DNA of 64,000 nucleotides from Tubulanus polymorphus (lineage: Eukaryota; Animalia; Nemertea), in contig NC_134033.1 of the NCBI RefSeq assembly GCF_964204645.1, positions 6,534,231 to 6,598,230 on the forward strand. Reading direction: 5' to 3'. A model generated the notes under the pieces. It searched no databases, was not told where the DNA came from, and saw only the letters and a program-made list of their open reading frames with translations. Positions 5,776 through 58,796 of the stretch are shown piece by piece; the stretch's first letter is position 1; every line of letters begins with the position of its first letter. Both the position numbers and the translations under genes were made by a program.

Positions 5776-5787
5776 AAAATTAAAATT

Positions 5788-6119: not shown

Positions 6120-6139
6120 TTATTTAACAAAAAAATTAA

Positions 6140-9005: not shown

Positions 9006-9021
9006 TTATATAATAAAAAAT

Positions 9022-10215
9022 TTAAAATTTAAAATATAATATTCCTCCTATTACAATTCCTATACAAGTTATAGCTAATTTAGCATTTTCATGGGATTTA
9101 TTATCATTATCAGTTTTAAATATGTCATGTTGAATATTATCAGTTTTTATATCACCGTGTGGGTGCCTTACGGCACCATTTTCTGATGTATTGTAATCTT
9201 TTATTTTAGAATCATTATTTAATTTAATATTCTTAGTTTTAGTTTCTGTTGATTGAATATGTTTTTTAATTTTTTCACCTTCCATTAATTTTGGAGCAGT
9301 AATAATCTTTTTATTGATATCATTCAATCCAAATGAATTATTTATTGTTGCAGTTTTTATCAAATTATTATAACCAATTATATTTCCCATCTTTAAAACT
9401 AAATAATTAGAAATAATTAATAGATTAGGGCCTATACAATAATTTAATCTAATATGTGATTTATGTAGATAATTTTGGTACCTAACTATGTTTTCTGGAA
9501 TCGATCTATTTTCATCATTATGAATGGAATCTTCAAATAATACTTTGAATTGTTTTTGTGTATCAAATGAAGTGTTATCATTTCCAACTATTGGTGATCT
9601 TGTTTCAACTTGAGCGCCTAGAATACATATCAAATAAGTTCTAATTGATTGATTTATTCTTTGTATGCCGGATTTTGTAAAACCTTCACTATTTTCTAAA
9701 ATAAAATTAATCCAACAATTATTATTTTGTTGTTGTATATTATTATAATATTTTGGTAATTCATTCCAATTTAGTGTTCTTATATCTGTATTTGTCATTA
9801 TTTTTCCAAATTCTTTAGTATATAATATTCCTAATCCACCCATTGTTCCAATTTTTTGATCTAAAATCATTATTTGAATTAATATTAAATTCATTACATA
9901 TTTTATAAAACTTAGAAAAATTAATATTATTATTTAGTTCATTAAAATATTTTGAACCTGGTAAAGGGCACTCTAATTCATCTAATATTAATTTTGTTTG
10001 AAAATATGTATGAAATCTAAAAAGTGATAAATAACATCAATGGTAAACTTGGTTTGTTTAAATGATCATTCCAACTTATACCACTCCCTGTTGTTGCACA
10101 ATAAACAGCAAAATTTAATTGGTTCTGCCAATACATACTTCATATTAGATTTTAATAACCATTGTTTTGTCTCAGTTAAATTTTTAAAATTAATTGTATA
10201 CACATGAAATATATG
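9022..10215 (-). pseudogene. Homolog of the 471-aa C-terminally anchored Polinton protein, frameshifted and 5'-deleted
   Basis: ORF 9022-9894 is highly similar to the C-terminal part of 50755-52170; the upstream YWQNQLNFAVYCAT motif is present out of frame. Confidence 0.88.
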
Positions 10216-10258
10216 AGGAATAATATCAATATTATCAACTTATCAACAAAAATTACTA

Positions 10259-10694
10259 ATTAGTAAATTTATATGCTACAAATATAACAATAACAGTTCC
10301 ACCTAAAATCCGTATTATTTCATATTTCTGTTGTTCTTTACTTAAGGTATAATAATCTGACAATTTAGGTTTGTATAGATGTAATTTTTCTTTGTTGGTT
10401 ACCGCGTTATATAAACTCATTGCATCATCAACGGATTGAAAATCTCTATGAGAAATCTTCTGAGCATATAATTCTTTATTGATGTAATTCTTTATTGATG
10501 TAATCCATGTAATTTTTTCTCTTCTCTCTATATTCTTCTGCTGCTTTATTATATTTTTCTAACGCTAAGTTATGTCTTTTTTGTTCTGCTAATGAACTAT
10601 CTTTATCAATATGCTTAGATAAATAACCACCACCTGTAAATGCTAAAGCGTTAACAATTGCCGATCCTATAATAGTTATAATTGCCGATGCCAT
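10259..10694 (-). pseudogene. Homolog of the 140-aa Polinton membrane protein, disrupted
   Basis: MASAIITIIGSAIVNALAFTGGGY... matches 49862-50284; a short internal duplication near 10470-10500 breaks the frame. Confidence 0.88.
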
Positions 10695-10717
10695 TTATTT
10701 AGCAAAAAAATATGCAT

Positions 10718-10939
10718 TTATATAGGAGGAATATATTTTTGTTTTTCCAAATAATCAATAGTTAAATTAGATAAAGTAACTGCTAGCGTCAATTTTAAGA
10801 TATCATTTATATCAAATCTATCAACATTAACACTTCCCATTTTAAATACTTTTTTTAATACCATTGAATAACCAACAGTTCCAACTGATAGTAAGGCACC
10901 ATAATATAATCCAGTTATTATCCACTTATTATCACTCAT
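10718..10939 (-). CDS. 73-aa hydrophobic Polinton protein
   Basis: Differs from 49616-49837 at one residue (Y vs N at position 13). Confidence 0.85.
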   Translation of the reverse strand: MSDNKWIITGLYYGALLSVGTVGYSMVLKKVFKMGSVNVDRFDINDILKLTLAVTLSNLTIDYLEKQKYIPPI

Positions 10940-11595
10940 TTATTTATCAAAAAAATTACTATCTTCAAAATATTTAGTTATCTTATTTATGATTATTTCA
11001 ACATTTATAGTATTATTAGTTTTATGATTATCATATATTTTGGATAATATGTTTTTAATGTCATCGATAATTCCATCTTCACCAGAATTACAAGTTATAT
11101 CTTTAGTTGCTTCGAATGTTTTTGTAGGATCGCTTAAATTGCAATAAATATAAAAGTGTGTAAAAGGTATTAAGTTTGGTGTAGCATCAATATTTGTAAA
11201 AGATTTACCTGGAAGAATTCCTAACACAACAACCTTATCTTTATTTTGTTAGAACTCTCACTTTTCAAAAATCTGATATTAAACCCGGAATTATTACCTG
11301 ACTTGTGCCAGGCTTTTCTATTAATTTCTTGTGCCAATGTATCTAAATTATGTAACCCTGGTTTTAAATATATATAGGCCCATTCATTTTTATTTTTATT
11401 ACACATTAAAAAGGCTCTATGTTCAACAGTTTTATTCGATATATTGTAAAATGAGTTACATAAACTAATATTTACTAATTTTAAATCTACACAATTCTTA
11501 AATTCTCTATCTAATTGTACTAATAAATTATGTGATTTATAATTAGTAAGTCTTCTTGAATCAACAAATATTCTGTATTCTTTTAATTCTACCAT
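10940..11595 (-). pseudogene. Minor capsid (penton-like) remnant fused by deletion to the C-terminus of the next small gene
   Basis: MVELKEYRIFVDSR... and FTHFYIYCNL match 48485-49242; INVEIIINKITKYF..SNFFDK matches the end of 49319-49615. Confidence 0.85.
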
Positions 11596-11611
11596 TTATT
11601 TTACATATTTT

Positions 11612-41660: not shown

Positions 41661-41959
41661 TGACAAGAAACGTGCGGTAGATTTCGGAAAGACGACTTAG
41701 AAAAACATGTCGGCTCTTTGAATGGGGCTCAATTTTCGATGTTTACGGCCCGACAGTGCTTTTGTAACGATGATTCGTGAAAAAACACGCGGAGTAATTG
41801 TAGATCTTAGTGAGCTGAACGATATCATACGGATTGTATCGACAACAGCGGCAAGGTAACAAAGCCTTTGTACTTTTAGTGAAACTATAGTGTGACATAA
41901 AATAGTAATAAATATAGCTGCATAGCAGCGATAACGGGTTTCTGCCTAATAAAGAAGTT

Positions 41960-42048
41960 AGTAATTGGAAGATGGCGTTTTCAGGCCAGAGGTCGTGCGG
42001 TCGAGACACCACTCATCACCACAAGTAATTTTTTTTCCTAATAAATGG
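41960..42048 (+). repeat. Left TIR (89 bp), includes the pPolB start codon
   Basis: Exact reverse complement of 58708-58796. Confidence 0.97.
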
Positions 42049-45000
42049 GGGAGAATGAACACCAGCCAGAAAACAATAATGTTAATAAAAATCAATATTA
42101 TTGCCAATATTGTAAAAAATACATCGATAAATCCCAAAAATCACGACATGAAAAAACGTCAAATCATATAAAAAATGTAATAGATTTTGAAACTCCAGAA
42201 AATTCCAATGAAAGAAAAGAACGATTAGAAAATATGAATGTGGATGAAATAAAATGTGAAGTTTGTAATGAATTTATAGTAAAAAGGAATTATAATAGAC
42301 ATCTCGAATCACAAAAACACCGCCAAAATTTGAGTAATAATGTTTTAGGAAAAGATTATTTTGATGATAAACCTCAACAAGTAAAAGAATCAACTTCAAA
42401 AACTAAATCCATTTCAAATAAACCTTACATGGAAAATGTTAGAAATTATATTGATTCACTAGAAATAAAAGATACAATTGAAATCTTAGAAACATTACAT
42501 AGTAAAATTGGTCCTGCAGCTATTATATTTAGATTCTTTAAAGGTACAACAATAGAAGATTATAGTAAATTTAATGAAATAATAGAAACAATACTAGATT
42601 TGATAACAGATGTTGAATATCCAAAAATTAGTATCTCTGGGAAAGTAAGTTTTATAAAGTCAGAAGAAAAAATGGATTATAATATTCAAACACACTCTGA
42701 AGAAATAATTTCAAAAACACAAATAAAAGAGAAGTTAGAAAAAATATTAAATGAATTTAAACGTCATATTGAAGAAAGATATTTTGAGGGTTCTGGCTTA
42801 ACATTGAATGAAATTATATATTTAGATTTAAATGTTTATAATACAAAAAGAAATAAAACATCAAAAAGTAATAAAATGTTTTAAAATGATTCAAACTTTA
42901 TAACAGAAAAAGATATGAAAGCATCAAGTTATATCAAATTACCATTTATAACAAAAGCAGTAATAAATATTCAAAATGAAGATAATAAATGTTTTCTATG
43001 GTCAATTATTAGTTGCTTACATCCAACAGAAGAACATGCTTATAGAATAACAGATTACCGGAAATATGAAACATTATATAAAATTGATCAATATCCAGTA
43101 ACTATAAAAATGATTCCTAAAATAGAAAAAGTTAATAATTTAAAAATAAATGTATTCGAATTAATGCAATTACCAAAGACAAAAGGTGAAAATATTAAAG
43201 ATTATACATTGGAAGCTTTATATTTAACAGAATATTATGATGATGAAAATGTTATAGATTTGTTATATTACAAAAAAGATGAAAATGAACATTATATGTG
43301 GTTAAAACAAATTGATTTATTCTTTAGAACAGAAAGTGATTTTAACAGCCATAAAATTTATCTATGTAGAAAATGTTTATCTAAATTTAGAACTGAGAAT
43401 ACATTATTAAAACATAAAGAATTATGTGATAATAAAGATTTTTGTAAATTAATAATGCCAACAGAAAAAGATTATAAATTGAAATTTACTAATCATAAAT
43501 TTAAAAATATTGTTCCATTTGTAATTTATGGGGATTTTGAATCGTTGAATAAAGAATTAACTGATCAAGATAGAAAAGAAATATATAACAAAAAGCAATT
43601 ATTAAAATCAATGGATAAAGGAAGTGAATTAAATGAAGACATAATACAAGACCCACCAATTATAAATACAATTAAAAAAGTTCATCAAAGAGCTGCTGCT
43701 TATGGAATTTACATAAAATCAAATTATCCCGAATTATATGAAAGTCAATATATTTCTTTTAGAGGTGAAAATGTAGTTAATAATTTTTGTGATAAAATTA
43801 TTGAATTAGAAAGTGATTTTGCAAAATTATTAAACAAAAATAAAAGAATAGTTATGACAAAAGAAGATGAAATTGATTTTAATTATGCAACTCATTGTTG
43901 TTACTGTGAAAAACGTTTTTATTCATTTGATAAAAAAGTTAGAGATCATAATCATTTAAATTCAAATTATCGTGGAGCTGCTCATGAAGATTGTAATTTA
44001 CAAGCCAAAAAAGTAAATTTTGTCCCCATTATATTTCACAATTTATCGGGGTATGATACCCATCTATTTATAAAACAGCTATGTTATAAAATAGAAGAAA
44101 TTAATAATGAAATAGAAATATTAAATTCTTCAAATAGATTAAAAGATAACAAAGTATCAATTTACAAATTTAAAATACTTGCTAAAACATCTGAAAATTA
44201 TATTTCATTCCAATTTGGGTGTTTGAGATTTTTAGATTCGTATAGATTTTTAAGTAGTTCATTAGAAAATTTATCAAAAAGTTTAGTTGATAATGATTTT
44301 CAAATATTAAAACAACATTATCAAAATAATAATGATTTTAAATTAATGAGATATAAAGGAGCAATTCCATATTCTTTCTATAAAAATCATGATGATTTTA
44401 ATGTAACAGAATTATAAAAAGATCAATTTTATGATAAATTAAAAGAGGAGTATGTGAAAGATGAAGTGTTTAATAGAACATTAAATATTTGGAACCATTT
44501 TAAGATGAAAAATCATGGTGAATTAGTTGATTTATATTTAAAATCAGATGTTATGATATTGGCTGACATATTTGAAAAATTTAGAGAAGTTAATTTGAAT
44601 CATTTTAATGTTGATCCTTGTTATTGCTACTCTAGTCCTGGTTTAACCTGGCAATGTGGTTTAAAATATACAAATGTAGAATTAGATTTATTAAAAGAAC
44701 CAGATATGGTTTTATTATTTGAAAAATCAATTAGAGGTGGAATTAGTGGTGTTATGGGAGATAGGTATTTTAAAGCAAATGATGAATATAAATTATTATA
44801 TATTGACGCCAATAATTTATATGGTTGGGCAATGATGCAACCTCAACCATATAAAAATTTTATATTAACAGAAGTTGAAAATGGCGATAAAACTGATTGG
44901 GAAAACGCAATTGCGAGTTTAAAAGATGAAGCGCCAATTGGTTATTTCTTTGTAGTTGATTTAGAATATCCTGAAAATATAAAGTTTAAAACAAGAAACT

Positions 45001-47118
45001 TACCTTATTGCCCAGAACATTTAACTGTAGATGATAGTTATTTAAGTGAATACCAGAAGAAAATAAAACCGAAAGATCATGTTTTTACTGAAAAATTAAT
45101 ACTTACTCAAAATAATAAATACAATTATATTGTTCATTATAGAATGTTAAAATTTTATCTAAAGCAAGGAATGAAATTAAAGAAAGTACATAGATATATT
45201 GAATTTAATCAATCGAAGTGGTTAGAAAAATATATAGATTTCAATACTCAACAGAGAACAATATCAAAAACAGATTTTGAGAAGGATTTTTTTAAATTGA
45301 TGAACAATAGTTTTTATGGTAAAACATGTGAAAATATTAGAAATAGAAATGATATTGAATTAGTGAATAATTATGAACGATTGAGACACCTACAATCAAG
45401 TCCTAGACATTTAGGAAATAAAAGATTTGAAGATTATTTAACAGCAGTAAAATTAAAAAGAACGTCAATGAAATTTAATAAACCAATATTTATAGGTTCA
45501 ACAGTTTTAGAAATATCAAAATTATTAATGTATGATTTTTATTACAATGTATTACAACCATTGTTTGGGGAAAAACATATAGAAATTCTATACTTCGATT
45601 CTGTAACAGCTGACACCCCAATATTATTAAAATAGAATAACCAAATATTAATTAGAAGAATTTCAGAAATAATTCCTAATCAAAATAAATCTTATATTTC
45701 ATATGGTGAAAAAGAACTAATACAAATAAATGGTTTAATAGATGTTTGGACAAGAAATGGATGGAAAAAATTAAAGAATATTATTAGACATAAAACAAAT
45801 AAGAAAATCTATAGAGTTAGAACTAAATTAGGATTTGTAGATGTTACTGAAGACCACAGTTTAATTAAACGAAATGGTGATGAAATAAAACCAACTGATA
45901 TAAAAATTGGAGATGAATTATTACATAAAAGATTTTTCCCAAGAATGAATCATATGTCATTTGATGAAATAATTGATAATATTTATAATATAGAACCCGA
46001 AACATTGGAAGAAAAAGAATATTTTATCAAAGGATTTTTCATGGGTGATGGTTCAGCAGGTGTGTATAAATATGTTTGGGGTAATAAATATTGTTGGTAT
46101 TTATGCAATCAAGACTTAAAATTATTAGAAAGAATTAAGAAATTCTGTGAAGAAGTTTATTCACATAAAACATTTAGAATCATGGATGTTATGAAATCAT
46201 CCGCGGTTTATAGAATACTTATAAATAATCCTAAAGATTTTGCTATAAAATATAATGATGAATTCTATATTCATGCAATAGTGAAAAGTAATACTTCAAC
46301 TAAAGAAAAAATAGTACCAGATTATATTTTAAATTCAGAATATAATCTTAGAAAATGGTTCTTCATTGGGTTCTACGCAGCCGATGGTACTAAAAAATTT
46401 ATAAAGGATAAAACGATAACCTTTGCACAGAAAGGAAAATGTGCAATAAGTGGGTTAAATGTGTTATGCAGTTCATTAGGATTTAATATGAATATAGAAT
46501 TAATTAAATCTAAACCAAATTGTTTTAATTTAAGGCATGTAGAAAAAGAATTAACAGAAGAAGTTAAAGATTTATTTGAAATATATAACCCAACTGACTA
46601 TGTTTATGATTTATCAACAGATGATGGAACATTCAATTCTGGGTTCCCATTAATCCAAAAAAATACTGACAGTTACATACTAAAAATCAAGACAAATGAT
46701 ATAACAAAAGACTTAAAAACATTGAAACATTATTTCGACTTTGGCAATTACCCCAAAGATCATGAATTGTTTAGTAATGATAATAAAAAGATTCCTGGGA
46801 AGTTTAAAGATGAATTAGGAGGTGATGAAATGATTGAATTTGTTGGGATAAGAAGTAAAATGTATAGTTATAGAACAAAAGATCATGAAGCTAAAAAGTT
46901 AAAGAATAACAAAACATGTGGTTGATAAACATATAGAATTTCAAGATTATATAAAGTGTTTATATAAATCAATTGTAATGAAACATAAAATGAATTGTTT
47001 AAGATCAGTAGATCACGAGATGTACATTAATGAAGTTGAAAAAACTAGTTTAAATCCATTTGATGATAAAAGGCATATTTTAGATGATGGTATAAAAACA
47101 TTACCTTATGGCCATTAA
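42045..47118 (+). pseudogene. polB: Protein-primed family B DNA polymerase (Zn fingers, vOTU-like, exonuclease with Endo VII-like insert, polymerase) with intein; 3 in-frame stops and 1 frameshift
   Basis: ORFs at 42045, 42915, 44454 and 45945 share one frame, split by single stops (42882, 44415, 45633); frameshift near 46903. Motifs: DNKCFLWS..HY, YGDFES, FHNLSGYD, RFLDS, YLKSDV, YIDANNLYG, KLMNNSFYGK, YFD|TDS, GKFKDE, SKMY. Confidence 0.95.
45600..46664 (+). mobile_element. Intein with LAGLIDADG homing endonuclease (355 codons) in pPolB motif C
   Basis: Splits YFD|TDS. Block A SVTADTPILL, block B VDVTEDHSL, LAGLIDADG helices FIKGFFMGDG and FFIGFYAADG, blocks F/G YVYDLST..GTF...LIQKN, then Thr at +1; one TAG at 45633. 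Confidence 0.95.
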
Positions 47119-48416
47119 AACATAAAATCAATATCATCAAACTCGAAATCACTATTGTCTTCTTCATTTTCATTTAATTGTTCAGGTTCTTCTTCCATTC
47201 CATTTTTCTCATTTAAATAAAGTTCTATCTTGTTCCACATTTCATCTCGCTCTCTTTGTTTCTTTTTGTTTGTTAATTCATCAAATGGAATTATAATATC
47301 TAGGTTTAAATAATTTACAATCTTATTTAAAAAGAATTCATAATTTATTGAATCTGTTATTCTATTTTCCAAATGATACATTAATATTTGTTTGAATATT
47401 TTTTTTATATTTTTCATATCTTCTTCTGTTAATTTAGGTTTTTCATAATAATCGTTAAATAATAAATATAAATACATTTTCTTTTCTTTTGTGTTAAATG
47501 TTGGTGGAATAATTGTTTTTATAATATCTTTTTTAGTTATTTCACCATTTTTATTTTCTATTATTTTCATTTTTTCAAGCCATTGCATATATTCTGGTGT
47601 ATGATCTTCTATAGAAAATATTTTAAAAATTTCATCAAGATAATTTAATTTTGGATCTATAAGAAAATTTCTAGTTTTTTCTTCATCCCATAAATTCTTT
47701 TGCCATCCACAATCAACACAAAATAACACAGTACCTTCTTGTCTTAAGGTCGCATAACTACATTGTGGACATTTTCGTTTATAATTTATTGGTAATAGAT
47801 CTTCATTAAGCTCTTGGTATTTTCTTACGTTTTCTTTATGTTTTATTGTTCTATTATGTAGATTTGAATTACTTGTTGTAATAATCAATTTACAATATTT
47901 ACAATAATATGTTTTTCTTGTTAATTCATTATATTGTTTTTCTAACTTTTCAACTGTTTCTTCATTATCTGGTAACGTTTTCTCATATTTTATTTTTTCT
48001 AATAAATTATTTTTTCTTTCATTGAATTCAGTTTCAAATTTATTAGAAATTTTATCTATATGTGCTTTACGAAATTGATGATTCTCCCAATCTTCTTTAT
48101 TATCAGGGATGTATTTCATTTGACAAGGCTCGCAGAAATGATTTTTTATTTTATCCTTATCATAAAATAAGGAAGGTCTTTTCCAAATAACTTCAGGTTC
48201 AACTTCAGCAGAATTACTATCAACATTAGCCATTGCGCCATTAATTCTACACTTCTCTGAATGTTTTTTAACATAATTTCTTGAGAATAATTGATTACAT
48301 TTTGGACAGTTTATTTTAGGGGGTTTATAATTTTCATTATGTTTTTTCATATGTCGAGCCTTATTACTTTTTCTTAGAAGTTCACCACAAATTTCACATG
48401 CTATCTTCTCTTCCAT
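47115..48416 (-). CDS. Zn-finger protein with C-terminal VLTF3 (poxvirus A2)-like late transcription factor domain
   Basis: Four N-terminal CxxC..H fingers; Zn ribbon CPQC-x13-CVDCG; C-terminal INYEFFLNKIVNYL...KKKQRERDEMWNKI resembles the VLTF3 family end. Recognised by eye only. Confidence 0.68.
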   Translation of the reverse strand: MEEKIACEICGELLRKSNKARHMKKHNENYKPPKINCPKCNQLFSRNYVKKHSEKCRINGAMANVDSNSAEVEPEVIWKRPSLFYDKDKIKNHFCEPCQMKYIPDNKEDWENHQFRKAHIDKISNKFETEFNERKNNLLEKIKYEKTLPDNEETVEKLEKQYNELTRKTYYCKYCKLIITTSNSNLHNRTIKHKENVRKYQELNEDLLPINYKRKCPQCSYATLRQEGTVLFCVDCGWQKNLWDEEKTRNFLIDPKLNYLDEIFKIFSIEDHTPEYMQWLEKMKIIENKNGEITKKDIIKTIIPPTFNTKEKKMYLYLLFNDYYEKPKLTEEDMKNIKKIFKQILMYHLENRITDSINYEFFLNKIVNYLNLDIIIPFDELTNKKKQRERDEMWNKIELYLNEKNGMEEEPEQLNENEEDNSDFEFDDIDFMF

Positions 48417-48484
48417 TTATTTAGGAAAAATTTTATTAAAATTAATTTTTAGTGATGAGTGTAATTTTTTTATGTTATAAATAA

Positions 48485-49242
48485 ATGGTGGAATTAAAAG
48501 AATATAGAATATATGTTGATTCTAGAAAACTTACAAATTATAAATCACATAATTTACTAGTACAATTAGATAGAGAATTTAAGAATTGTGTAGATTTAAA
48601 ATTAGTAAATATAAGTTTATGTAATTCTTTTTACAATGTATCGGATAAAACTCTTGAACATAGAGTCTTTTTAATTCATATTAGAAATATAAATGAATGG
48701 TTTCATCTATTTTTAAAACCAGGGTTATATAATTTAGAAACATTAGCCCAAGAAATTAATCGGAGAGCACGATTAAAACTTGGAAAAGATGATAAATTTT
48801 TAATTAAATTTAGTAAAAGTGATAGTTCTGATAAAATTAAAATAAAGTTAGATGATGAAAACAAACATGCATTTATGGTAAAAAAACCTATAGCTAAATT
48901 GCTAGGAATTGAACCAGATGTTGTTACAGGAAACGTAGACGGTAATTCAAATATAATACCTTTTACACACTTTTATATTTATTGCAATTTAATCGATCCT
49001 ACAAAAACATTTGAAGCTACTAAAGATAAAACTTGTAATTCTAGTATACTAAATATTTTACCAATAAAAATGTTAAACAATTTGGAACTCAAATAAATTA
49101 TAATTTAACAGAATGTGATTTTAAACCTTGCATTCCTAAATTTAATAATTTTAGATTAGAAATTAGAAATCATAATGGATACTTAATTGATTTAAATAAC
49201 TTTCCTGTGATATATGAATTAGTTATAAGATGTAAAGAGTAA
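48485..49242 (+). pseudogene. Minor capsid protein (penton-like), 1-nt frameshift near 49070
   Basis: IYVDSR start, FYIYCNLID, ILPI; shifted frame continues FRLEIRNHNGYLIDLNNFPVIYELVI to a stop at 49240-49242. Confidence 0.78.
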
Positions 49243-49258
49243 TTTTTTTATTATATAA

Positions 49259-49615
49259 ATAAATATAATTGTTGGACCGAGTATATGTTTTGGATTTGAT
49301 TTTAAACGTGAGAAAGAAATGAAATTTAACATGAATGATGTAATTACACATATAAAAAATGTTGTATTTTCTAATGAAACAACATTTGAGTATGAAACAA
49401 CAATAGATAAAGAAACTTTAAATGTAGAAAAGATTACTAATTTAATTAGAGAATCTTTAAGATTTTATGAATTAGATGAAGATTTTATAATCGATGATAT
49501 TAAAAAAATAATAATTGAAATATATACAAATGAAACTAGTAATGAAATAAATGTTGAAATAATCATAAATAAGATAACTAAATATTTTGATGATAGTAAT
49601 TTTTTTGATAAATAA
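49259..49615 (+). CDS. Small Polinton protein; probable original start mutated (TAAATG to TAAATA), downstream ATG at 49319
   Basis: Open frame from ATA at 49259 behind a T-run/TAAAT motif; C-terminus conserved in copy C. Confidence 0.6.
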   Translation: MNIIVGPSICFGFDFKREKEMKFNMNDVITHIKNVVFSNETTFEYETTIDKETLNVEKITNLIRESLRFYELDEDFIIDDIKKIIIEIYTNETSNEINVEIIINKITKYFDDSNFFDK

Positions 49616-49837
49616 ATGAGCGATAATAAGTGGATAATAACTGGATTATATAATGGCGCATTACTATCAGTTGGAACTGTTGGTTATTCAATGGTATTAA
49701 AAAAAGTATTCAAAATGGGAAGTGTTAATGTTGACAGATTTGATATCAATGATATTTTGAAATTAACATTAGCAGTTACTTTATCTAATTTAACTATTGA
49801 TTATTTGGAAAAACAAAAATATATTCCTCCCATATAA
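49616..49837 (+). CDS. 73-aa hydrophobic protein
   Basis: TAAATG start; two hydrophobic segments; conserved in copy C. Confidence 0.8.
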   Translation: MSDNKWIITGLYNGALLSVGTVGYSMVLKKVFKMGSVNVDRFDINDILKLTLAVTLSNLTIDYLEKQKYIPPI

Positions 49838-49861
49838 ATGCATAATTTTTTTGTTAAATAA

Positions 49862-50284
49862 ATGGCTTCTGCAATTATAACTATTATAGGATCAGCAATT
49901 GTTAACGCTTTAGCATTTACTGGTGGTGGTTATTTATTTAAACATATTGATAAAAATAGTTCATTAGGAGAACAAAGAAGACATAACTTAGCGTTAGAGA
50001 AATACAATAAAGCTGCAGAAGAATATAGAGAAAAGAGACAAAACTATATGGATTACATCAATAAAGAATTATATGATCAGAAGATTTCACATAGAGATTT
50101 TCAATCAGTTGATGATGCAATGAGTTTATATAACGCAGTAACCAATAAAGAAAAATTACATCTATACAAACCTAAATTATCAGATTATTATACCCCAAGT
50201 AAAGAACAACAGAAATATGAAATAATATGGATTTTAGGTGGAACTGTTATTGTTATATTTGTTGCTTATAAGTTTACTAATTAG
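49862..50284 (+). CDS. 140-aa protein with hydrophobic N- and C-termini
   Basis: TAAATG start; conserved in copy C. Confidence 0.82.
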   Translation: MASAIITIIGSAIVNALAFTGGGYLFKHIDKNSSLGEQRRHNLALEKYNKAAEEYREKRQNYMDYINKELYDQKISHRDFQSVDDAMSLYNAVTNKEKLHLYKPKLSDYYTPSKEQQKYEIIWILGGTVIVIFVAYKFTN

Positions 50285-50303
50285 TAATTTTTAATCTAAA
50301 TAA

Positions 50304-50738
50304 ATGGAAGATAAAGTTGATAGTATTGATATTATTCCTCATGATATAAATAAAACTAAATTAAAAACATATTTAGAAAAACAAATATTAGAATTTGAAA
50401 GTGACTTAAAGATAAAAAAGAAAAAATATTTAAAAAGTAAAATTATATATTATCTTATTATTAGTGGTTCGGTTACAATTAGTTCTGTAATAACATTTCT
50501 AGCAATATTCAGTCCATTAACACCTTTAGCTATATCAATTGGTGTATTAGGATTAAGTTCAAGTGTTTTAACCGGTATAAGTTCAAAATTAAATATAAAA
50601 AGTAATAAAGAAAAAATCAAAACTAATATAAAAGAAATTAATAAATTAAAGAACACACTAGATTATATAATAAGTTTAAATGGTCATATAACAGTTGAAG
50701 AACAAGATAAATTATTAAAAGAATTAATAAATTATTAA
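50304..50738 (+). CDS. 144-aa protein with two predicted TM helices flanked by coiled coils
   Basis: TAAATG start; hydrophobic stretch IIYYLIISG...LTGISS. Confidence 0.78.
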   Translation: MEDKVDSIDIIPHDINKTKLKTYLEKQILEFESDLKIKKKKYLKSKIIYYLIISGSVTISSVITFLAIFSPLTPLAISIGVLGLSSSVLTGISSKLNIKSNKEKIKTNIKEINKLKNTLDYIISLNGHITVEEQDKLLKELINY

Positions 50739-50754
50739 TTTTTTAATTATATAA

Positions 50755-52170
50755 ATGGTAGATAGTTTTCCAAAAGCTTTCCAATATAATAAATCAATTA
50801 AATATAATATTCCAGCAATAGATTTTAATAAAGATATTACATATAGAAATGAAGTTTTAGATTCATTAACTAATTTAGAAATTTATGTTACTGAAACTAA
50901 TAATTTTAATGCAAAGATGGAAAATATATTTCATGTATATTTAATTAATTTTAAAAAATTGAAAGATGAAAAACAATGGTTATTAAAATCTAATATGAAG
51001 TATTGGCAGAACCAATTAAATTTTGCTGTTTATTGTGCAACAACAGGATGTGGAATTAGTTGGAATGATCATTTGAATAATTCTAAATATAAACTAATTC
51101 AAAGTTTATTTAGATTTCATACATACTTTCAAATCAGAATAATATTAAATGAATTAGAGTGCGCTTTACCAGGATCTAGGTATTTTAAAGAATTAGATAA
51201 TAATATTAATTTATCAAAGTTTTATAAAATTTGTAATGAATTTAATATAGATATAAATAATTCTGATTTTAGAATAAAAATTGGAACAATAAGATCACTT
51301 CCTTGCCCTAGAAAGATTGCAGAATATTGTGCACTTCCCATACCATCTAATAGTTTTTATAATATCTATAATAAAAAATTAGGTTATGGTAAAATAGAAA
51401 CAAAGGATTTAGAAACATTAAATTTCAATAAATTACCGAAATTTTATGATAATTTAAAACAAGAAAACAATAATGGTTGGGTTTATTTTATTTTAGAAAA
51501 TAGTGAAGGTTTTACAAAATCAGGTATAGAAAGAATAAATCAATCTATTAGAACTTATTTAATATGTATTCTAGGATCACAAGTTGAAACAAGATCCCCG
51601 ATAATTGGAAATTTGAATACATCATTCGATACACAAAAACAGTTTAAAGTTTTATTTGAAGATTCAATTCATAATGATAAAAATAGATCGATTCCAGAAA
51701 ACGTTATAAGATATCAAAATTATTTAGATAAATCTCATGTAAGACTAAATTATTGTATAGGCCCTAATCTATTAATTATTTCTAATGATTTAGTATTAAA
51801 GATGGGAAATATAATTGGTTATAATAATCTAATTAAAACTGCAACAATAAATAATTCATTTGGGTTAAATGATATAAATAAAAAGATTATTACTGCTCCA
51901 AAATTAATAGAAGGTGAAAAAAATAAAAAACACATTCAATCAACAGAAACTAAAACTAAGAATATTAAATTGGTTAATGATTCCAAAATAAAAGATTACA
52001 ATACATCAGAAAATGGTGCCGTACGGCACCCACACGGTGATAATAGAACTGATATTATTCAACATGATATAATTAAACAATATGATGATAATAAATCCCA
52101 TGAAAATACTAAATTAGCTATAACTTGTATAGGAATTGTAATCGGAGGAATATTATATTTTAAATTTTAA
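50755..52170 (+). CDS. 471-aa Polinton protein with C-terminal membrane anchor, function unknown
   Basis: Intact ORF, TAAATG start, C-terminal LAITCIGIVIGGILYF; conserved in copy C. Confidence 0.85.
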   Translation: MVDSFPKAFQYNKSIKYNIPAIDFNKDITYRNEVLDSLTNLEIYVTETNNFNAKMENIFHVYLINFKKLKDEKQWLLKSNMKYWQNQLNFAVYCATTGCGISWNDHLNNSKYKLIQSLFRFHTYFQIRIILNELECALPGSRYFKELDNNINLSKFYKICNEFNIDINNSDFRIKIGTIRSLPCPRKIAEYCALPIPSNSFYNIYNKKLGYGKIETKDLETLNFNKLPKFYDNLKQENNNGWVYFILENSEGFTKSGIERINQSIRTYLICILGSQVETRSPIIGNLNTSFDTQKQFKVLFEDSIHNDKNRSIPENVIRYQNYLDKSHVRLNYCIGPNLLIISNDLVLKMGNIIGYNNLIKTATINNSFGLNDINKKIITAPKLIEGEKNKKHIQSTETKTKNIKLVNDSKIKDYNTSENGAVRHPHGDNRTDIIQHDIIKQYDDNKSHENTKLAITCIGIVIGGILYFKF

Positions 52171-52186
52171 TTTTTTTATTATGTAA

Positions 52187-53647
52187 ATGGATGTAGAAGG
52201 TGGAGAAGATTATGAAATGGGAGAAATGGGAAATGATAATGAAGGATATATTGATGATGATTATAATGATGCAGAAACTAATATTGATAATGATGATGAA
52301 TCAGCATATAATTCTAATTTAGCAGATAGTGGTTCTAAAGGTCAATCAACAGATGAATTTGATAGAAGAACTAGATCGAGAATAAATCCTGAAAATGAAA
52401 ATCCAGATTTAGTAAAACAAAATTTAGAATATAATGAATATATTTATAATTTCAAACCTATATTTGAAAAATCTGGATATAATATCAATGCTAGAGGCGC
52501 CAGACTTTTAGTACAAGAATTAAAATCTTTAGATGGTGAATATTATTATCATTTGAAAGATGATTATTATATTGATATCTCTTATAAAAAACAAAACAAA
52601 ATATTAGCAGAATCAACTTTGCTTAAGTTAGACCTATCTAGAATTAAAAGAATAAGAAATAGTAATGAACCAGAAGATGTAACACAAGAAGAAATTATTA
52701 AAAATGAAAGAGTATTTAAACAAAGAATTAATGAATTATTTGAAACAATCGATAATAATTTAGAACCAGAAACAAGTTCTCAACAGAATATAACTTCCAA
52801 AACTAGTAAACTTAAATCAAATAAAGTTCCAATTGAAAAACTTTTACCGAATGGGTTACTTGATGCAACAGATCAAGAATTAGAAGATTTAGATATATTT
52901 TCTGATAAAGCAATTAGAGAAATTATTAGTATAAGACTTGCATCTGATAAAATTGCGCATGATAAAAGTATAAGAGATTTTAAGATTAGAACTTTAGAAA
53001 AAGAATTAACTGATAAAAATAAAGAAATAGAACAATTAAAATTAGATAGAGATAATAAAGTAATTGAAGAAATTGAATTTAAAAAAAGAAATGCATATTT
53101 AGAAAAAGAAATTGATGATTTAGAATATAACATAGAATTACAAAAAGAAGAAATTAAATCATTATTTAAATCATATGATTATAATATTGATAGATTAAAA
53201 GATGTTTTTAAAAGATATCTAATAAAACCAGATTCTAGAATATCATTAAAAGATAGAATAAAATTGTTATTTAAATTAGAAGGAATAACAATTCTTTCAA
53301 TTCTAACAGGTGTAACTATGTTATTTACAACAATAGGTTTAGCTATATCAAATGCTTTGAAATCTACTCCTACTCCCAATAAACCAGATAAACCCCCGAA
53401 TGATAATAATTCTATACAAGATAAAGTTAAAGATGGTTTAAAGAAATTAGCAAAATATTTATGGGAACTATCAAAGAAATCTGCTGCAGCACTACCAGGA
53501 GTTATTGCATCAATTGTTGGTTTTGTTTTAAAATCTGCAGGAAACATTATTAACTTTGCTGCTGAACATATTATTTTATTTTTAATTACAGTTGTAAGTG
53601 CTATTATTTTTGGGTTAGTAAATATGATATCAAAAAATATCAAGTAA
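52187..53647 (+). CDS. 486-aa acidic/coiled-coil protein with C-terminal hydrophobic helices
   Basis: Intact ORF, TAAATG start; C-terminal third conserved in copy C. Confidence 0.85.
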   Translation: MDVEGGEDYEMGEMGNDNEGYIDDDYNDAETNIDNDDESAYNSNLADSGSKGQSTDEFDRRTRSRINPENENPDLVKQNLEYNEYIYNFKPIFEKSGYNINARGARLLVQELKSLDGEYYYHLKDDYYIDISYKKQNKILAESTLLKLDLSRIKRIRNSNEPEDVTQEEIIKNERVFKQRINELFETIDNNLEPETSSQQNITSKTSKLKSNKVPIEKLLPNGLLDATDQELEDLDIFSDKAIREIISIRLASDKIAHDKSIRDFKIRTLEKELTDKNKEIEQLKLDRDNKVIEEIEFKKRNAYLEKEIDDLEYNIELQKEEIKSLFKSYDYNIDRLKDVFKRYLIKPDSRISLKDRIKLLFKLEGITILSILTGVTMLFTTIGLAISNALKSTPTPNKPDKPPNDNNSIQDKVKDGLKKLAKYLWELSKKSAAALPGVIASIVGFVLKSAGNIINFAAEHIILFLITVVSAIIFGLVNMISKNIK

Positions 53648-53688
53648 ACCATGATTAAAAATAAATAATTAATTTTTTTGTTAAATAA

Positions 53689-54936
53689 ATGAGTGGGAGT
53701 TATATAAGTCCTTCTAAGATTTCTAGAATATCTAATGCTATTAAAGCAGAAAGATTACATCATATAATTACTCATAACCCTTCAAATATTAATCCCGATG
53801 AAACTTTATACGTTAGAATTCCGAGATTAACACAAAATACTTTTTATGTTCCAAATAGTATTTATTTATCAGCTGATATAAAAGTAATCGGTAATAATAA
53901 TAATTATGTTGTTGATAATGTTGGAAGATATTTGATTAAAAAGTTAACAATAAAGATTGGTCCAGAAACAGTTTTCTCATTAGATGATTATAATTTATTT
54001 ATGCATTATAAAGATTTATGGTTAACTAAAGAAAATAGAAATAATATGATATTTCAAGGAATCCAATCAGAAAACCAAAATAAATTAAGATCAGAAGCTA
54101 ATAGCGCAATATTAACAAATGATGTAGATAAATTGATAAAAAGTATATATGGAAGCAAATATAAAATTCCATTAGACTTTGAATTGATAAATAATAATGC
54201 ACCTTTATATAAATACGCAATTCAAGAAGATATTATATTTGAGATAACATTTGCTCCTGTAAATGAAATTGTAATATCTAGCGTTAATAAAGATATGAGT
54301 TATAAATTATCGAATATATGTTTAGAATATGATACAGTAACTGATGAAAATATTGCTAGAACAATTCAAACTCAATACAATCAAGGATTTTCATTATTAT
54401 ATGATTATATTGATAAATTTAAAACTGTAACTATTAATGCAAATGATGAAATAATTAATGAGAATATTAACTTCCCTAGAAGATCTATTAAAGGTATATT
54501 AATATTTCTTACCATTGGAACGTATACTAATGGCGCAATAAATGTTGATAATTATTATAATCCTGAAATAACAAAAGTAGAAATAACTATCGAAGGTATA
54601 GCGAATAAAATATTTTGTCAAGGAATGAGAATGATAGATCAATGGGTAGAAATTAAAAAACATTTTATGAATGAAAAAGTAAAATCATTTGAAAATTGTA
54701 ACATTAATCAAATTGATTATTATACCGGTAATAAATATGCATTATGGTTAGATTTTAGAACAACTGAAGATAATTCATTACATGGTTCTGGGAAAAAATT
54801 ACAAAATACAAAAGATGGGATCCAATTATTTATGACAAAGAAAAAGGGAATCAAAAATTTTAAAATGCATATTTATATTATATCTGACGCACAATTAAAT
54901 ATTGTAAATTCACAATTAGATATTATTCAATATTAG
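53689..54936 (+). CDS. Major capsid protein (putative double jelly-roll)
   Basis: 415-aa intact ORF beside integrase and ATPase; beta-strand pattern (LYVRIPRL, YKIPLDF, IIFEITFAP, LSNICLEYD, LWLDFR); size and position fit a Polinton MCP. Confidence 0.8.
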   Translation: MSGSYISPSKISRISNAIKAERLHHIITHNPSNINPDETLYVRIPRLTQNTFYVPNSIYLSADIKVIGNNNNYVVDNVGRYLIKKLTIKIGPETVFSLDDYNLFMHYKDLWLTKENRNNMIFQGIQSENQNKLRSEANSAILTNDVDKLIKSIYGSKYKIPLDFELINNNAPLYKYAIQEDIIFEITFAPVNEIVISSVNKDMSYKLSNICLEYDTVTDENIARTIQTQYNQGFSLLYDYIDKFKTVTINANDEIINENINFPRRSIKGILIFLTIGTYTNGAINVDNYYNPEITKVEITIEGIANKIFCQGMRMIDQWVEIKKHFMNEKVKSFENCNINQIDYYTGNKYALWLDFRTTEDNSLHGSGKKLQNTKDGIQLFMTKKKGIKNFKMHIYIISDAQLNIVNSQLDIIQY

Positions 54937-54966
54937 AAATATAAAGTTAAAATTAAGGATATATAA

Positions 54967-56094
54967 ATGAGTGGTAAAAAAACTCCTAATACTAAAGAAC
55001 AATATTTAAGAAATTTATATTACAACCCTGAGAGTTCGGTTGCTTATTCTTCTACTAAAAATATATGGCGTAAAGTAAAACAAGATAAATTAGATAAGAT
55101 AATCTCACAAAATTTAGTTAAATATAAAGATATAAATGAATTTATGTTAGAACAACCAACATATACAACACATAAAAAAATTGTTAGAAAATATAAAACT
55201 CGTAAAACTATGGTAAGTTATGTAGATCAACAGTGGCAAGGAGATTTAATTGATATGAAAAATGTTAAGAAAGATAATGATGATTATTGGTGGTTATTGA
55301 ATATAATTGATATTTTTAGTCGTTATGTATGGAGTTTCCCACTTTATAGAAAAGATGCTGCACAAACATCACATGTTTTAAGAAAATTTCTTTCGGATGA
55401 TAAACTAAAACCAGAAAAAATACAATTTGATGATGGAAAAGAGTTTGATAATTCACTTGTTCATGAACTCTTAGATAATCATAATATTAAATATTTTTCA
55501 ACAAAATCAGATAAAAAAGCAGCAGTTGTTGAACGATTTAATAGAACATTAAGAACAAGAATGTGGAAATATTTTACAGCAAATAATACTTTTAAATGGA
55601 TTGTTGTTTTACCAAAATTGATAGAAGGATATAATAATTCTTATCATTCTTCTATTGGAATGAAACCTATTGATGCTAGAAAACCTGAAAATGCTGAAAT
55701 TGTTTGGAATAATTTATATGGAGCATTTCTTGTAGATGATTTTGGTGAACCTAAATTTAAAGTTGGTCAAAATGTTAGAATTTCTAAGTATAAAAAGATA
55801 TTTGATAAAGGATACGATCGAAATTTTACTAGAGAAATATATAAAATAAAAAAGGTAATAACAACAAAACCATATGTCTATAAATTAGAAGATTTAGATG
55901 GTGAAGAAGTTGATGGCTACTTTTATGAAGAAGAATTAAGTTTAACTACTGAAAATCTAAAACAAGAATATAAAATTGAAAAAGTATTAAAAACAAAAAC
56001 TGTTAAAAGAAAAAAATATTCTTTAGTAAAATGGGTTGGATGGCCAGATAAATTCAATGAATGGATATTATCAAGTAAAATTAAAAATATATAA
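54967..56094 (+). CDS. Retroviral-like (rve) DDE integrase with C-terminal chromodomain
   Basis: WQGDLIDM, IDIFSRY, IQFDDGKEF, VERFNRT, YNNSYHSSIGMKP; chromodomain YKIEKVL...LVKWVGWPDKFNEWI. Confidence 0.95.
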   Translation: MSGKKTPNTKEQYLRNLYYNPESSVAYSSTKNIWRKVKQDKLDKIISQNLVKYKDINEFMLEQPTYTTHKKIVRKYKTRKTMVSYVDQQWQGDLIDMKNVKKDNDDYWWLLNIIDIFSRYVWSFPLYRKDAAQTSHVLRKFLSDDKLKPEKIQFDDGKEFDNSLVHELLDNHNIKYFSTKSDKKAAVVERFNRTLRTRMWKYFTANNTFKWIVVLPKLIEGYNNSYHSSIGMKPIDARKPENAEIVWNNLYGAFLVDDFGEPKFKVGQNVRISKYKKIFDKGYDRNFTREIYKIKKVITTKPYVYKLEDLDGEEVDGYFYEEELSLTTENLKQEYKIEKVLKTKTVKRKKYSLVKWVGWPDKFNEWILSSKIKNI

Positions 56095-56703
56095 ATGAAT
56101 AAGGAATTATTCATATTTGAGCCTCATAATATGTTAATTTCTGGTGTAACAAATTGTGGAAAAACTTATTTTATATTACATTTATTAGAAACTGTTTATG
56201 AAAACTATTTTGATAATATAGTATTATTTTGTCCAACATATGAATTTAATCAAACTTATGATAAAAATATTACTAGGAATAATAAATTTATTATATTAGA
56301 TCCTAAAACAGTAAAAGAAAATTTAGATAATTGTATAAAAATAGCAATTGATATTTATAAAGGATCAAATACATTATTTATCATAGATGATTGTGCTAAT
56401 CTACATGATTCAAAAGTTAGAGAAAGTGAGTTATGTTATTTAGCTTTTTCTGGTAGACATTTTGGGATAACAACTTGGGTTTTAAATCAAAAATATAATT
56501 CAATTGTTAAAGATTTTAGAGAAAACATTAGATTTCTAGTTTTATTCTACAATAAAGATAGAAAATCGATGAAAAATGCACTTGAGGAAAATGATATTAT
56601 TCCACATGATTTACATAATGAATATATGGATAAGTTGAAAAATATTAAAAGATCAAAATTACTATTTAGATTACAACACCCATTTAAATATGAATTTATT
56701 TAA
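56095..56703 (+). CDS. A32/FtsK-type DNA packaging ATPase
   Basis: Walker A GVTNCGKT, Walker B FIIDD, GRH motif, Q sensor (VLNQ), FREN. Confidence 0.93.
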   Translation: MNKELFIFEPHNMLISGVTNCGKTYFILHLLETVYENYFDNIVLFCPTYEFNQTYDKNITRNNKFIILDPKTVKENLDNCIKIAIDIYKGSNTLFIIDDCANLHDSKVRESELCYLAFSGRHFGITTWVLNQKYNSIVKDFRENIRFLVLFYNKDRKSMKNALEENDIIPHDLHNEYMDKLKNIKRSKLLFRLQHPFKYEFI

Positions 56704-57062
56704 ATTCAATTAGTTTGTTAATCTAGTTGAATTCTAGTTATTGGTAGTTGTAACAAAAATCAAATAGATTTAACAATATTTTAACTAGCTTGTTAATCTA
56801 TTTTAATTCTAGTTGAATTCTAGTTGTTAGTAGTTGAAACAAAAATCAACTAGATTTAACAAGAAATAAACAAAAACAACAATATTTCAACTAGCTTGTT
56901 AATCTAGTTACATTCTAGTTACATTCTAATTGAATTCTAGTTGTTAGTAGTTGAAACAAAAATCAACTAGATTTAACAAGAAATAAACAAAAACAACAAT
57001 ATTTCAACTAACTTGTTAATCTAGTTGAATTCTAGTTACATTATAGTTAAATTCTAGTTGCA
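56704..57062. repeat. Non-coding repeat block inside the Polinton (CTAGTT/AACTAG motifs, 117-bp duplication)
   Basis: Duplicated unit at 56818 and 56935 plus a degenerate upstream copy. Confidence 0.8.
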
Positions 57063-57093
57063 ACATCACACAATTAATTTTTTTGTTATATAA

Positions 57094-57680
57094 ATGGTAG
57101 GTGAAAAGAAAATAAAATCTAAAAATGGTGATGTTCCAATTGAAAAAACTTTAGATGATTTAGGAATAACAGAAACAAAATTAATTCCAGATGATGGTGC
57201 TTTAAATAATGTTACAACAAATAATAATTATGAATATTATCTTTATTGCAAACATCAATTAGAAATATTAATAGCATCTGGAAAATGTAAAAATTTTGTT
57301 AGTAAAAATTTAACTTATAATGAATTAGACACAATGAAATCAGATGAAATTATTAGATTATTTAAGATTTATGAAGCCGCGAGAACAGCTAGAATTAATG
57401 ACGCGATATCAGAAAATGTAGTAAAAGGTTATAGTAAATTATGTAATTATATACTACCAATTGAAGATGAAAATAGATTATATTCCGATTTAAAAAATGA
57501 TTATTTATGACTGAATTAAATAAATGGATTGGATATTTATCATTTCAATTAGGTGGATTTATGACATTATTATCAACTGGAGTTATAACATTTTCAAATA
57601 TTGAAAGTAAAAATATTTCTATAATAAATGAGCGAGGTGAAAGAAGTGAAGAAAAAACCGAGAACTCAGAAACAAATTGA
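57094..57680 (+). pseudogene. Polinton protein with hydrophobic C-terminal region, frameshift near 57505
   Basis: ORF 57094-57510 appears to continue in a shifted frame as TELNKWIGYLSFQLGGFMTLLSTGVITFSNI to TGA at 57678-57680. Confidence 0.62.
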
Positions 57681-57981
57681 ATGGTCTCGGCAATTAGGAA
57701 TTAAATCACAAGAATATAAAAAAGCTGTAAAAGAAAAAATAAGTAATAAAAATGTTAATAAAAATGGTGAAAATATTGTTATTTCTACTCCTTCTGATAG
57801 TAGAATATTTGATAAATATTTATATTTTACAGTTGGATTTGTAATTGTATTCATTTTGATTGGGTGTAATTGGTATAAGAAATCAAATAAAATTCATGAT
57901 ATTAGTAATTCTGAACCAACTGCTATCAAAAATGAAAGTACTTCTGAAATTCCAAAATTGACAATAAAAAAAATGGATTAA
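57628..57981 (+). CDS. 117-aa basic protein with a single TM helix
   Basis: TAAATG start; Lys-rich N-terminus; YLYFTVGFVIVFILIGC segment. Confidence 0.75.
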   Translation: MSEVKEVKKKPRTQKQIEWSRQLGIKSQEYKKAVKEKISNKNVNKNGENIVISTPSDSRIFDKYLYFTVGFVIVFILIGCNWYKKSNKIHDISNSEPTAIKNESTSEIPKLTIKKMD

Positions 57982-58018
57982 TATTTTAGAAAAAAAGCAA
58001 AAAAAATAATTGAATATC

Positions 58019-58711
58019 TCACTGCGGAGCAATTAAATTGTCTAGATAAGTCATTTCGGATTCCTCAACGTATCGTTCATTATTTGGATTATTGTTCCAT
58101 TGATCAATAAATTTCTTTGCCTTTGTTAACTGTTCTGAATATAACTGTAAATTTAGTTTATTAGATTTAATTATATTTTCTTTCTTTTCTAAAGGCCTTA
58201 AATTTCTCCAGTTCCAGATTTTCTTCTTATCATATTCATCATTCATATCAAATTTAGAAATCGGCAACACGTGATCAATATGAAAGTATTCACCATAATT
58301 ATCTATATTCATTTTATCATCGAATTGATATATTATCCATGATTTTAAGAATTCATCTGAACAACCCAATAGATTAGATAGTGTTTCTGAATGTGTTTCT
58401 TTGTTGAATAATTGTGTTAATCTAGACCGTAAACATTGTTTCAATCTAAAATTAAGATCTGTTTGATATCTTTCTCTCATATATTTTGTCATATAATCAT
58501 TATAAGATTCTCTATTATCTTCTCGGTATTGTTTGGTATATAGTTTAAAACAAGTTTTACAGCAATTTTGAAAACCATCTTTGCTAATCTTACGCTTACT
58601 AAATTCTGTAAATGATTTATCTAATTCACATTTAGAACACTTCTTGTAGTATATGTTTATAACACCAATGTTATTTGTAATATTAACAATTTGTGGTTGT
58701 TCTGATTCCAT
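58019..58711 (-). CDS. HNH endonuclease with N-terminal CxxC...CxxC Zn ribbon
   Basis: CSKC...CKTC; HIDHVLP...NLRPL...N..KSNK; start codon lies inside the right TIR. Confidence 0.85.
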   Translation of the reverse strand: MESEQPQIVNITNNIGVINIYYKKCSKCELDKSFTEFSKRKISKDGFQNCCKTCFKLYTKQYREDNRESYNDYMTKYMRERYQTDLNFRLKQCLRSRLTQLFNKETHSETLSNLLGCSDEFLKSWIIYQFDDKMNIDNYGEYFHIDHVLPISKFDMNDEYDKKKIWNWRNLRPLEKKENIIKSNKLNLQLYSEQLTKAKKFIDQWNNNPNNERYVEESEMTYLDNLIAPQ

Positions 58712-58796
58712 TTATTAGGAAAAAAAATTACTTGTGGTGATGAGTGGTGTCTCGACCGCACGACCTCTGGCCTGAAAACGCCATCTTCCAATTACT
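58708..58796 (-). repeat. Right TIR (89 bp), includes the HNH gene start codon
   Basis: Exact reverse complement of 41960-42048. Confidence 0.97.

Follow-up and report, generated by a model that had tools for sequence, protein, structure and literature searches.

The genes of integrated mavirus share the late promoter motif of Cafeteria roenbergensis virus (CroV) and stay silent until infection (10.1101/068312), and Gezel-14T shares the promoter motif of its helper, Phaeocystis globosa virus (PgV) (10.1101/2022.07.28.501842). In animals, the Polinton-like elements (polinton-like viruses, or PLVs) linked to entomopoxviruses have been proposed to parasitise poxviruses (Barth et al. 2024, PMC11296320). 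The yeast elements pGKL1/2, which also encode a pPolB, use a TAAAN initiator at which slippage generates 5' poly(A) leaders (PMC6211774). Here we describe a full-length Maverick/Polinton of 16,837 bp, located at 41960-58796 of a 64,000-nucleotide window (the whole stretch of DNA analysed) from Tubulanus polymorphus contig NC_134033.1, in which nearly every gene starts within a motif that ends in TAAATG. We propose, with a probability of roughly 0.6, that this motif is a post-replicative promoter whose transcription falls to a co-infecting cytoplasmic large DNA virus and its RNA polymerase.

Like mavirus, the Maverick is an integrated element of 15-20 kb with terminal inverted repeats (TIRs), a target site duplication (TSD), pPolB and an rve integrase, and as in the mavirus/CroV and Gezel-14T/PgV pairs it has no recognisable RNA polymerase of its own and one promoter motif in common with a large virus. 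It differs from virophages and PLVs in its animal host, its Maverick-type capsid, a motif of pox rather than mimivirus type and a VLTF3-like gene of its own, and in that its helper is a presumed one. The entomopoxvirus PLVs have an adenovirus-type protease and divergent capsids, and some are without an integrase (PMC11296320), whereas the Maverick carries an rve integrase and no protease was found among the open reading frames (ORFs) scanned. The pGKL1/2 elements bring their own RNA polymerase, capping enzyme, helicase and upstream conserved sequence (PMC6211774); none of those enzymes was recognised in the Maverick, which has capsid and integrase genes. With animal Mavericks of group 2 it shares TIR, 6-bp TSD, pPolB, rve, A32 ATPase and capsid (10.64898/2026.06.19.733378; PMC8502044; PMC11131425). 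Full-text searches of a literature collection with few subscription papers turned up no description of TAAATG or of pox-type promoters for Mavericks. The main text of the entomopoxvirus PLV paper (PMC11296320) contains no promoter or motif analysis, and the word 'promoter' is absent from the main text of the adintovirus, coral polintovirus, egovirus and 2026 framework papers. The motif would thus apparently be a lineage-wide variant of helper-promoter mimicry undescribed so far. New here is also the predicted VLTF3 (poxvirus A2L) late-factor domain encoded by ORF 48416(-).

Fifteen gene starts were chosen blind to the motif, and TAAATG occurs at 14 of them compared to 33 of the 640 other ATGs (Fisher p=2e-16). 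These are the 14 starts listed by a sequence-only reading of the window, and they open ORFs of 73-486 aa. Since the starts at 42045 and 58711 both lie in an identical 89-bp TIR, they count as a single observation, which gives 13/14 vs 33/640 (p=2e-15). A control using the first ATG after a stop yielded TAAATG at 33/437 (p=3e-14). The exception, the gene at 49319, has its motif 60 nt upstream and in frame, as had been noticed; because the orthologue in the close relative L003 begins behind TAAATG at the matching place, we regard the start of this gene as broken in the window copy. The T-run that had been described before most starts is borne out as well, with at least five T at -22..-8 in 11/14 starts and in 1/33 of the non-start TAAATG. 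Overlooked at that stage was a fixed register: T at -19 (13/14), A at -18 and at -17 (13/14 each), a T-tract spanning -16..-10 and T at -14 (14/14), the whole forming a fixed-register unit of about 22 nt. The integrase, ATPase and 57628 genes carry an A-tract variant. The spacer from TAAAT to the T-rich core is 5-8 nt in 10/14 starts; T peaks 9-11 nt before TAAAT in the window and 9-10 nt before it in the lineage described below, and A peaks at 14-15 nt. A matrix of positions -20..-4, trained on relatives only and excluding TAAATG itself, gave the 14 real starts scores between 0.8 and 9.8 and put 31/33 non-start TAAATG below zero (p=6e-8), showing that the upstream part is informative apart from TAAATG. 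Stop-start junctions are confined to 49616 and 56095, as had been stated, and across the lineage 4/49 motif starts abut an upstream stop, so that translational coupling does not explain the pattern. The claim that the motif is kept in degraded copies holds in that TAAATG stands at 5/6 alignable starts of a decayed copy; it adds little, since that copy is 76-96% identical overall and retention is expected even without selection.

The element has perfect 89-bp TIRs at both ends, a 6-bp target duplication GAAGTT and a GC content of 20-26% against a surrounding background of 35-43%. We find the features by which Polintoviricetes are recognised, namely TIRs with a 6-bp TSD, the 15-20 kb size class, pPolB, an rve integrase (1.7e-10), a capsid and an A32 ATPase (Pox_A32 8e-13). 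The features of the window are as follows.

41954..41959, no strand: left 6-bp TSD GAAGTT, repeated at 58797-58802
41960..42048, + strand: left TIR, 89 bp, 100% complementary to 58708-58796, ending at the first gene's ATG plus one base
42026..42047, + strand: promoter-like motif of the PolB gene, within the TIR
42045..47120, + strand: pPolB with intein, broken (Pfam; homology to the L032 ORF)
47115..48416, - strand: 433-aa protein with N-terminal zinc fingers and a predicted zinc ribbon/helical VLTF3 (poxvirus A2L)-like domain at residues ~205-410
48414..48487, no strand: divergent intergenic region, 68 nt long, holding one motif per strand, for genes 48416- and 48485+
48485..49096, + strand: 203-aa ORF with TAAATG start
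49240..49615, + strand: in-register motif at 49240-49261, then an open frame; start broken here (L003 orthologue)
49597..49837, + strand: motif and conserved 73-aa ORF, stop-start junction
49843..50284, + strand: motif and conserved 140-aa ORF
50285..50738, + strand: motif and 144-aa ORF resembling a protein with two transmembrane segments
50736..52170, + strand: motif and conserved 471-aa ORF, 16-nt gap after the upstream stop
52168..53647, + strand: motif and conserved 486-aa ORF, 16-nt gap
53670..54936, + strand: motif and 415-aa major capsid protein (Capsid_N in homologues)
54948..56094, + strand: A-tract motif variant and rve integrase with chromodomain
56076..56703, + strand: A-tract motif variant and A32-type packaging ATPase, stop-start junction
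57075..57640, + strand: motif and conserved ORF, frame broken near 57500
57609..57981, + strand: A-tract motif variant and 117-aa ORF
58019..58711, - strand: 230-aa Cys-rich ORF with its promoter in the right TIR; the L001 homologue has a weak HNH match
58708..58796, - strand: right TIR carrying the same promoter motif
5773..11601, - strand: second copy of this family, partial and decayed, at 76-96% identity

Since the left TIR reaches the first gene's ATG plus one base, the promoter of that gene lies inside the TIR. The pPolB is identified through pieces that match L032 ORF 12617(-), which in turn matches DNA_pol_B_2 at 6e-19; a LAGLIDADG intein lies within it at 45600-46670 (Intein_splicing 5e-7, LAGLIDADG_3 5e-7). 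This copy is dead and unable to copy itself: its frame is interrupted by stops near 42882, 44415 and 45633 and shifts near 46900. The major capsid label comes from homologues, 16/46 of which match Capsid_N, the window copy itself being unmatched, and the capsid had no sequence match in the PDB. From gene order and size typical of Polintons we presume the 203-aa ORF to be the minor capsid protein; it had no profile confirmation. A Pfam scan of the Maverick ORFs, several of which remain unannotated, found no protease, RNA polymerase or capping enzyme families. Judged from the lack of an adenovirus-type cysteine protease among the scanned ORFs, the element fits group 2. Variants of the whole Maverick are abundant, and contigs from three runs cover its entire length; a run presumed to be of RNA gave just 3 partial contigs, which speak neither for nor against expression.

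The polymerase, VLTF3-like and right-end genes alone have an exact 10-mer, CACTCATCAC, 27-45 nt upstream (at 42010-42019(+), 48452-48461(-) and 58737-58746(-)). The TIR pair accounts for two of these sites, and with one mismatch allowed the overall count is no higher than chance. It could be a priming or early element, relevant to how the cycle starts.

With an alignment of 46 capsids as query, 141 metagenome loci matched, of which the best 80 were compared together with 3 loci from genome bins. A close group of 16 loci has the nearest capsids (51-77% identity where measured); it was delimited after identity and motif had been viewed together. Here 55/66 ORFs of at least 100 aa start at TAAATG (49/59 once two near-duplicates are removed), compared to 11/456 in the 67 more distant Maverick loci. 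Base composition does not account for this: the 12 AT-richest distant loci have TAAATG at 1/40 starts and the lineage loci with GC of at least 33% at 10/13. With starts anchored by homology, the scan of other Mavericks that had been suggested as a check gave TAA at 36/40 in the lineage and 1/109 outside. In a quick-mode capsid tree of 76 rows, from which 8 loci with fewer than 250 aligned residues had been dropped, the window and the 15 retained group loci stand on one side of a branch with an SH-aLRT of 96. The motif marks one capsid-defined Maverick lineage. This lineage has accessory genes in common with other Mavericks; it is unlike the 67 more distant loci, which are without the motif and have kept a purine at -3. 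The Kozak rule favours a purine at this position. Since T is found there in 37/40 lineage starts and a purine in 97/109 other Maverick starts, the lineage has given up the Kozak purine. The stop codon within the motif is TAA in 36 cases and TGA in one. Gene order and orientation differ among relatives and the motif moves with each gene, gained genes included, and divergent pairs only 19-30 nt apart have a motif on each strand.

In L003 a deoxynucleoside kinase gene (10343-10981(-), Pfam dNK 1.7e-31) lies behind TAAATG; such genes are common in large DNA viruses. The distant Mavericks L081, L016, L059 and L082 have TAAAATG, with four A's, at several starts, like an intermediate-type initiator. 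The P0046 cluster has a capsid 54% identical to that of the window on contigs of 0.5-1.6 kb labelled Bartonella; these are likely contamination from a eukaryotic host, a hint that the lineage is not confined to the sea. Scanning IMG/VR with the capsid gave no relatives, and a motif scan of IMG/VR returned 12 loci, none similar to the Maverick, with many motif starts only in L090 and L093.

In the late consensus of vaccinia, TAAAT followed by G overlaps the start codon and a conserved T lies 10 nt upstream; its intermediate promoters are marked by an AT-rich tract at 15-19 nt upstream (PMC11980589). The distance from core to initiator is 5-7 bp (PMC5294985), the TAAA initiator is contacted and read by the viral polymerase itself (PMC12917281), and slippage on it yields a poly(A) leader (PMC6211774). 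The Maverick resembles this arrangement in a T-rich core peaking about 10 nt upstream, an AT-rich tract beyond it, the occurrence of A-tract and T-tract variants, and very short divergent spacings like that of the vaccinia G8R scaffold (PMC12917281). It is unlike vaccinia in that the motif precedes essentially all genes, those for polymerase and factor included, with no early class identified. The match to the vaccinia late layout that the sequence-only reading had asserted stands for TAAAT(G) over the start and for the T peak at 9-11; the motif is not exclusive to poxviruses, as iridovirus-like genomes have it too. In a 20-kb entomopoxvirus sample TAAATG is found at 9/22 starts, and the register is tighter in the Maverick than in that sample. 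From this layout we infer that these are late promoters. What the motif points to is thus late transcription of a Nucleocytoviricota type; the Maverick's own factor would tilt this towards poxviruses.

That factor is the product of ORF 48416(-). Its C-terminal half gave 27.4 and 31.2 bits with Pox_VLTF3 (PF04947, cut-off 25) on trimmed domains, the full-length protein being missed by the profile, and the ESM Atlas agrees on VLTF3 (0.95). A search of 1.84 billion representatives returned four matches. Three resemble the Maverick protein; the fourth, P0163, is a 226-aa VLTF3 that is 63% identical to VLTF-3 of Amsacta moorei entomopoxvirus and has both Pox_VLTF3 and the A2L zinc ribbon. The N-terminus of P0160 is 96% identical to the matching ORF of lineage member L003, and the P0160 and P0162 clusters share contig sizes of 16,883 and 12,994 nt with close capsid homologues, which suggests co-occurrence. 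A structure predicted from the alignment (pLDDT 84) ranked cowpox and entomopox VLTF-3 at 1, 2 and 4, with matches at E 3e-6 and Megaviricetes proteins close behind the pox ones. The window domain scores 29.4 bits on an entomopox profile vs 0.7 on a profile of 112 Megaviricetes-type proteins, and a 35-row tree, which has long branches and took in no chordopox, asfarvirus, mimivirus or PLV references, groups it with entomopox, apart from the Megaviricetes-type proteins, at 99/97. Among the references tested, the predicted domain is closest to entomopoxvirus VLTF-3. Several searches gave nothing: Foldseek against the PDB had no match at E 0.001 or better, a single-sequence fold was of low confidence with no significant match, a word-index search found 0/1360 candidates, and an IMG/VR scan with the VLTF3-like alignment found no relatives.

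Enrichment, register, lineage confinement, a VLTF3-like factor and the lack of polymerase and capping families together lead us to favour helper-virus promoters, and that a Maverick encodes a poxvirus-type late factor further supports the late-promoter assignment. In the mechanism we propose, the Maverick promoters would be read by the RNA polymerase that a large DNA virus, most likely a poxvirus-like one, brings into the same cell, with the Maverick's own VLTF3-like protein predicted to help load it. A poly(A) leader made by slippage would account for the tolerance of T at -3, and such leaders would permit genes 16-30 nt apart. Until infection by the helper, the integrated copy would remain silent, as mavirus does with CroV. 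About two thirds of the weight of this proposal falls on a poxvirus-like helper, which is the leading and not the sole candidate.

Several observations weigh against this proposal. The family has many divergent copies in the host (14,818 contigs over three identity bands), indicating repeated germ-line integration, which would be easier for an autonomous nuclear element. Short divergent spacing also occurs outside the lineage (33 nt in L027), and no poxvirus of this host was found. TAAATG stands at 12/38 starts in the iridovirus-like bin G001 and at 13/37 in G002 (34/1127 and 46/1080 of their other ATGs, respectively), and the Maverick matrix ranks iridovirus-like starts above non-start sites, just as it does entomopox ones; since the motif is shared with these bins, it does not by itself name the helper. 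VLTF3-like genes are already known in some (coral) polintoviruses (PMC11131425). The pox affinity of the domain is distant (27% identity, E 7e-5), both the VLTF3-like and the entomopox sets are K/N/I-rich with composition bias making up 21 of the 29 bits, the alignment used for folding contained the entomopox-type P0163, and the tree has long branches and missing reference groups. Lastly, the sister locus L027 has a VLTF3-like gene yet no TAAATG.

The best capsid matches of G001 are PDB 6ojn/8hif and 7yjl, which we take to be iridovirus and marseillevirus capsids. In the loci of these two giant-virus bins (L090, L093, L098 and L099), which the motif itself had brought to light, roughly one gene start in three has TAAATG and several others have TAAAATG. 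Among 108 unassigned ORFs of at least 130 aa from distant loci of at least 7 kb, on contigs that are partial, the L027 protein was the one VLTF3 match. On the Maverick profile it scores 0.6 bits; in the tree it stands on the opposite side, at the end of a very long branch. Its gene may be a separate gain. In L027 and the further sister loci L014, L019 and L056, a purine occupies -3 and a TATA lies within 20 nt of the ATG at 8/8 anchored starts, so that the L027 gene and these TATA starts are possibly a second factor-promoter pair.

The strongest competitor dispenses with a helper. The VLTF3-like protein, which we take to be TFIIB-like, would redirect host RNA polymerase II to a private core promoter whose pox layout was retained or converged on by chance. 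A chromodomain integrase and many genomic copies suit such a nuclear life, and compact promoters are general in Mavericks, given a TATA within 20 nt of the ATG in 8/8 sister and 14/21 AT-rich distant starts. The weak top PDB matches of the factor are chains of polymerase II/III pre-initiation complexes (E 0.08 or worse). The small mriyaviruses count VLTF2 and VLTF3 among their core genes, and the five genes that they have in common with Nucleocytoviricota include no polymerase (PMC11253617). Against this, polymerase II starting inside TAAAT would make a leader of just 1-2 nt, and a start further upstream leaves the T at -3 in the capsid and nearly all other genes. The factor and polymerase genes bear the same motif, so that nothing obvious primes the cycle, and in vaccinia TAAA is read by the viral polymerase core (PMC12917281). 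A weak further point is that AATAAA is not avoided in the coding strands of the window (69 observed, 64.7 expected). Poly(A) sites and splice donors in coding strands did not discriminate, and CpG, at 0.55 in the Maverick against 1.05-1.22 in host flanks, is low in AT-rich distant Mavericks as well (0.73) and so carried no weight. On balance we consider redirection of the host polymerase rather unlikely, although well short of negligible.

Far less probable is a signal at the level of translation, in which TAAATG would act on long polycistronic or read-through RNAs, either guarding by an in-frame stop or allowing re-initiation, and the T-tract would be the upstream gene's terminator (vaccinia-type TTTTTNT) or an RNA element. 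The TAA is always an in-frame stop, core-block genes lie 0-41 nt apart and TTTTTNT is depleted in lineage coding strands (15 vs 38-42 expected), all of which would fit. This depletion is in part a general avoidance of homopolymers, however, and PolB has 6 TTTTTNT sites. The motif also stands in the TIRs before first genes, and on either side of divergent pairs, places without an upstream cistron; the junctions are just those 4/49, and among the stop codons TAG is unused and TGA appears once. At slightly lower odds still, the motif could be a relic out of use, the lineage descending from a helper-dependent virus and now spreading as a transposon only. The window copy is indeed broken in PolB and two other genes, but the motif has been kept across 51-77% capsid identity, GC of 0.20-0.44, gene reorderings and gains such as the L003 deoxynucleoside kinase, which calls for continuing selection. 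The remaining candidates were rejected: an AT-content artefact by the 1/40 in AT-rich distant and 10/13 in GC-richer lineage loci, first-ATG-after-stop bias by the 33/437 control and the homology-anchored starts, a Kozak-type context by T at -3, a splice acceptor by AG within the last 10 nt at only 5/49 starts, and a canonical TATA box because polymerase II, starting 25-30 nt downstream of it, would leave out N-termini that are conserved from residue 1.

The helper-promoter proposal bears on the standing question of Maverick autonomy. Virions have not been observed for any animal Maverick (10.64898/2026.06.19.733378); if the proposal is right, helper dependence would explain why virions go unseen without the helper, provirophage biology would extend from protists to animals, and the motif would serve as a sequence tag for finding helper viruses. 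A more specific version is possible, though the odds are against it: the lineage may consist of endogenous virophages of poxviruses that captured A2L, rewired every gene to a pox late promoter and now remain silent in the germ line until infection wakes them. Were this true, these Mavericks may act as inherited antiviral defence, and they would point to poxvirus-like viruses in invertebrate hosts where none are yet known.

Some features around the element are recorded here. Tandem repeats of about 115 bp fill 56700-57070, in the longest intergenic gap of the Maverick. At 58797-60880 the Maverick is seen to have inserted into one end of a short inverted-repeat element with a long interspersed nuclear element (LINE) reverse-transcriptase fragment, and a fragment of a rhodopsin-family G-protein-coupled receptor lies near the Maverick, a sign of an animal host. 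The AT-rich region 62800-64000 has tandem repeats and a 133-bp inverted match to 11654-11786, and is possibly the end of another related element.

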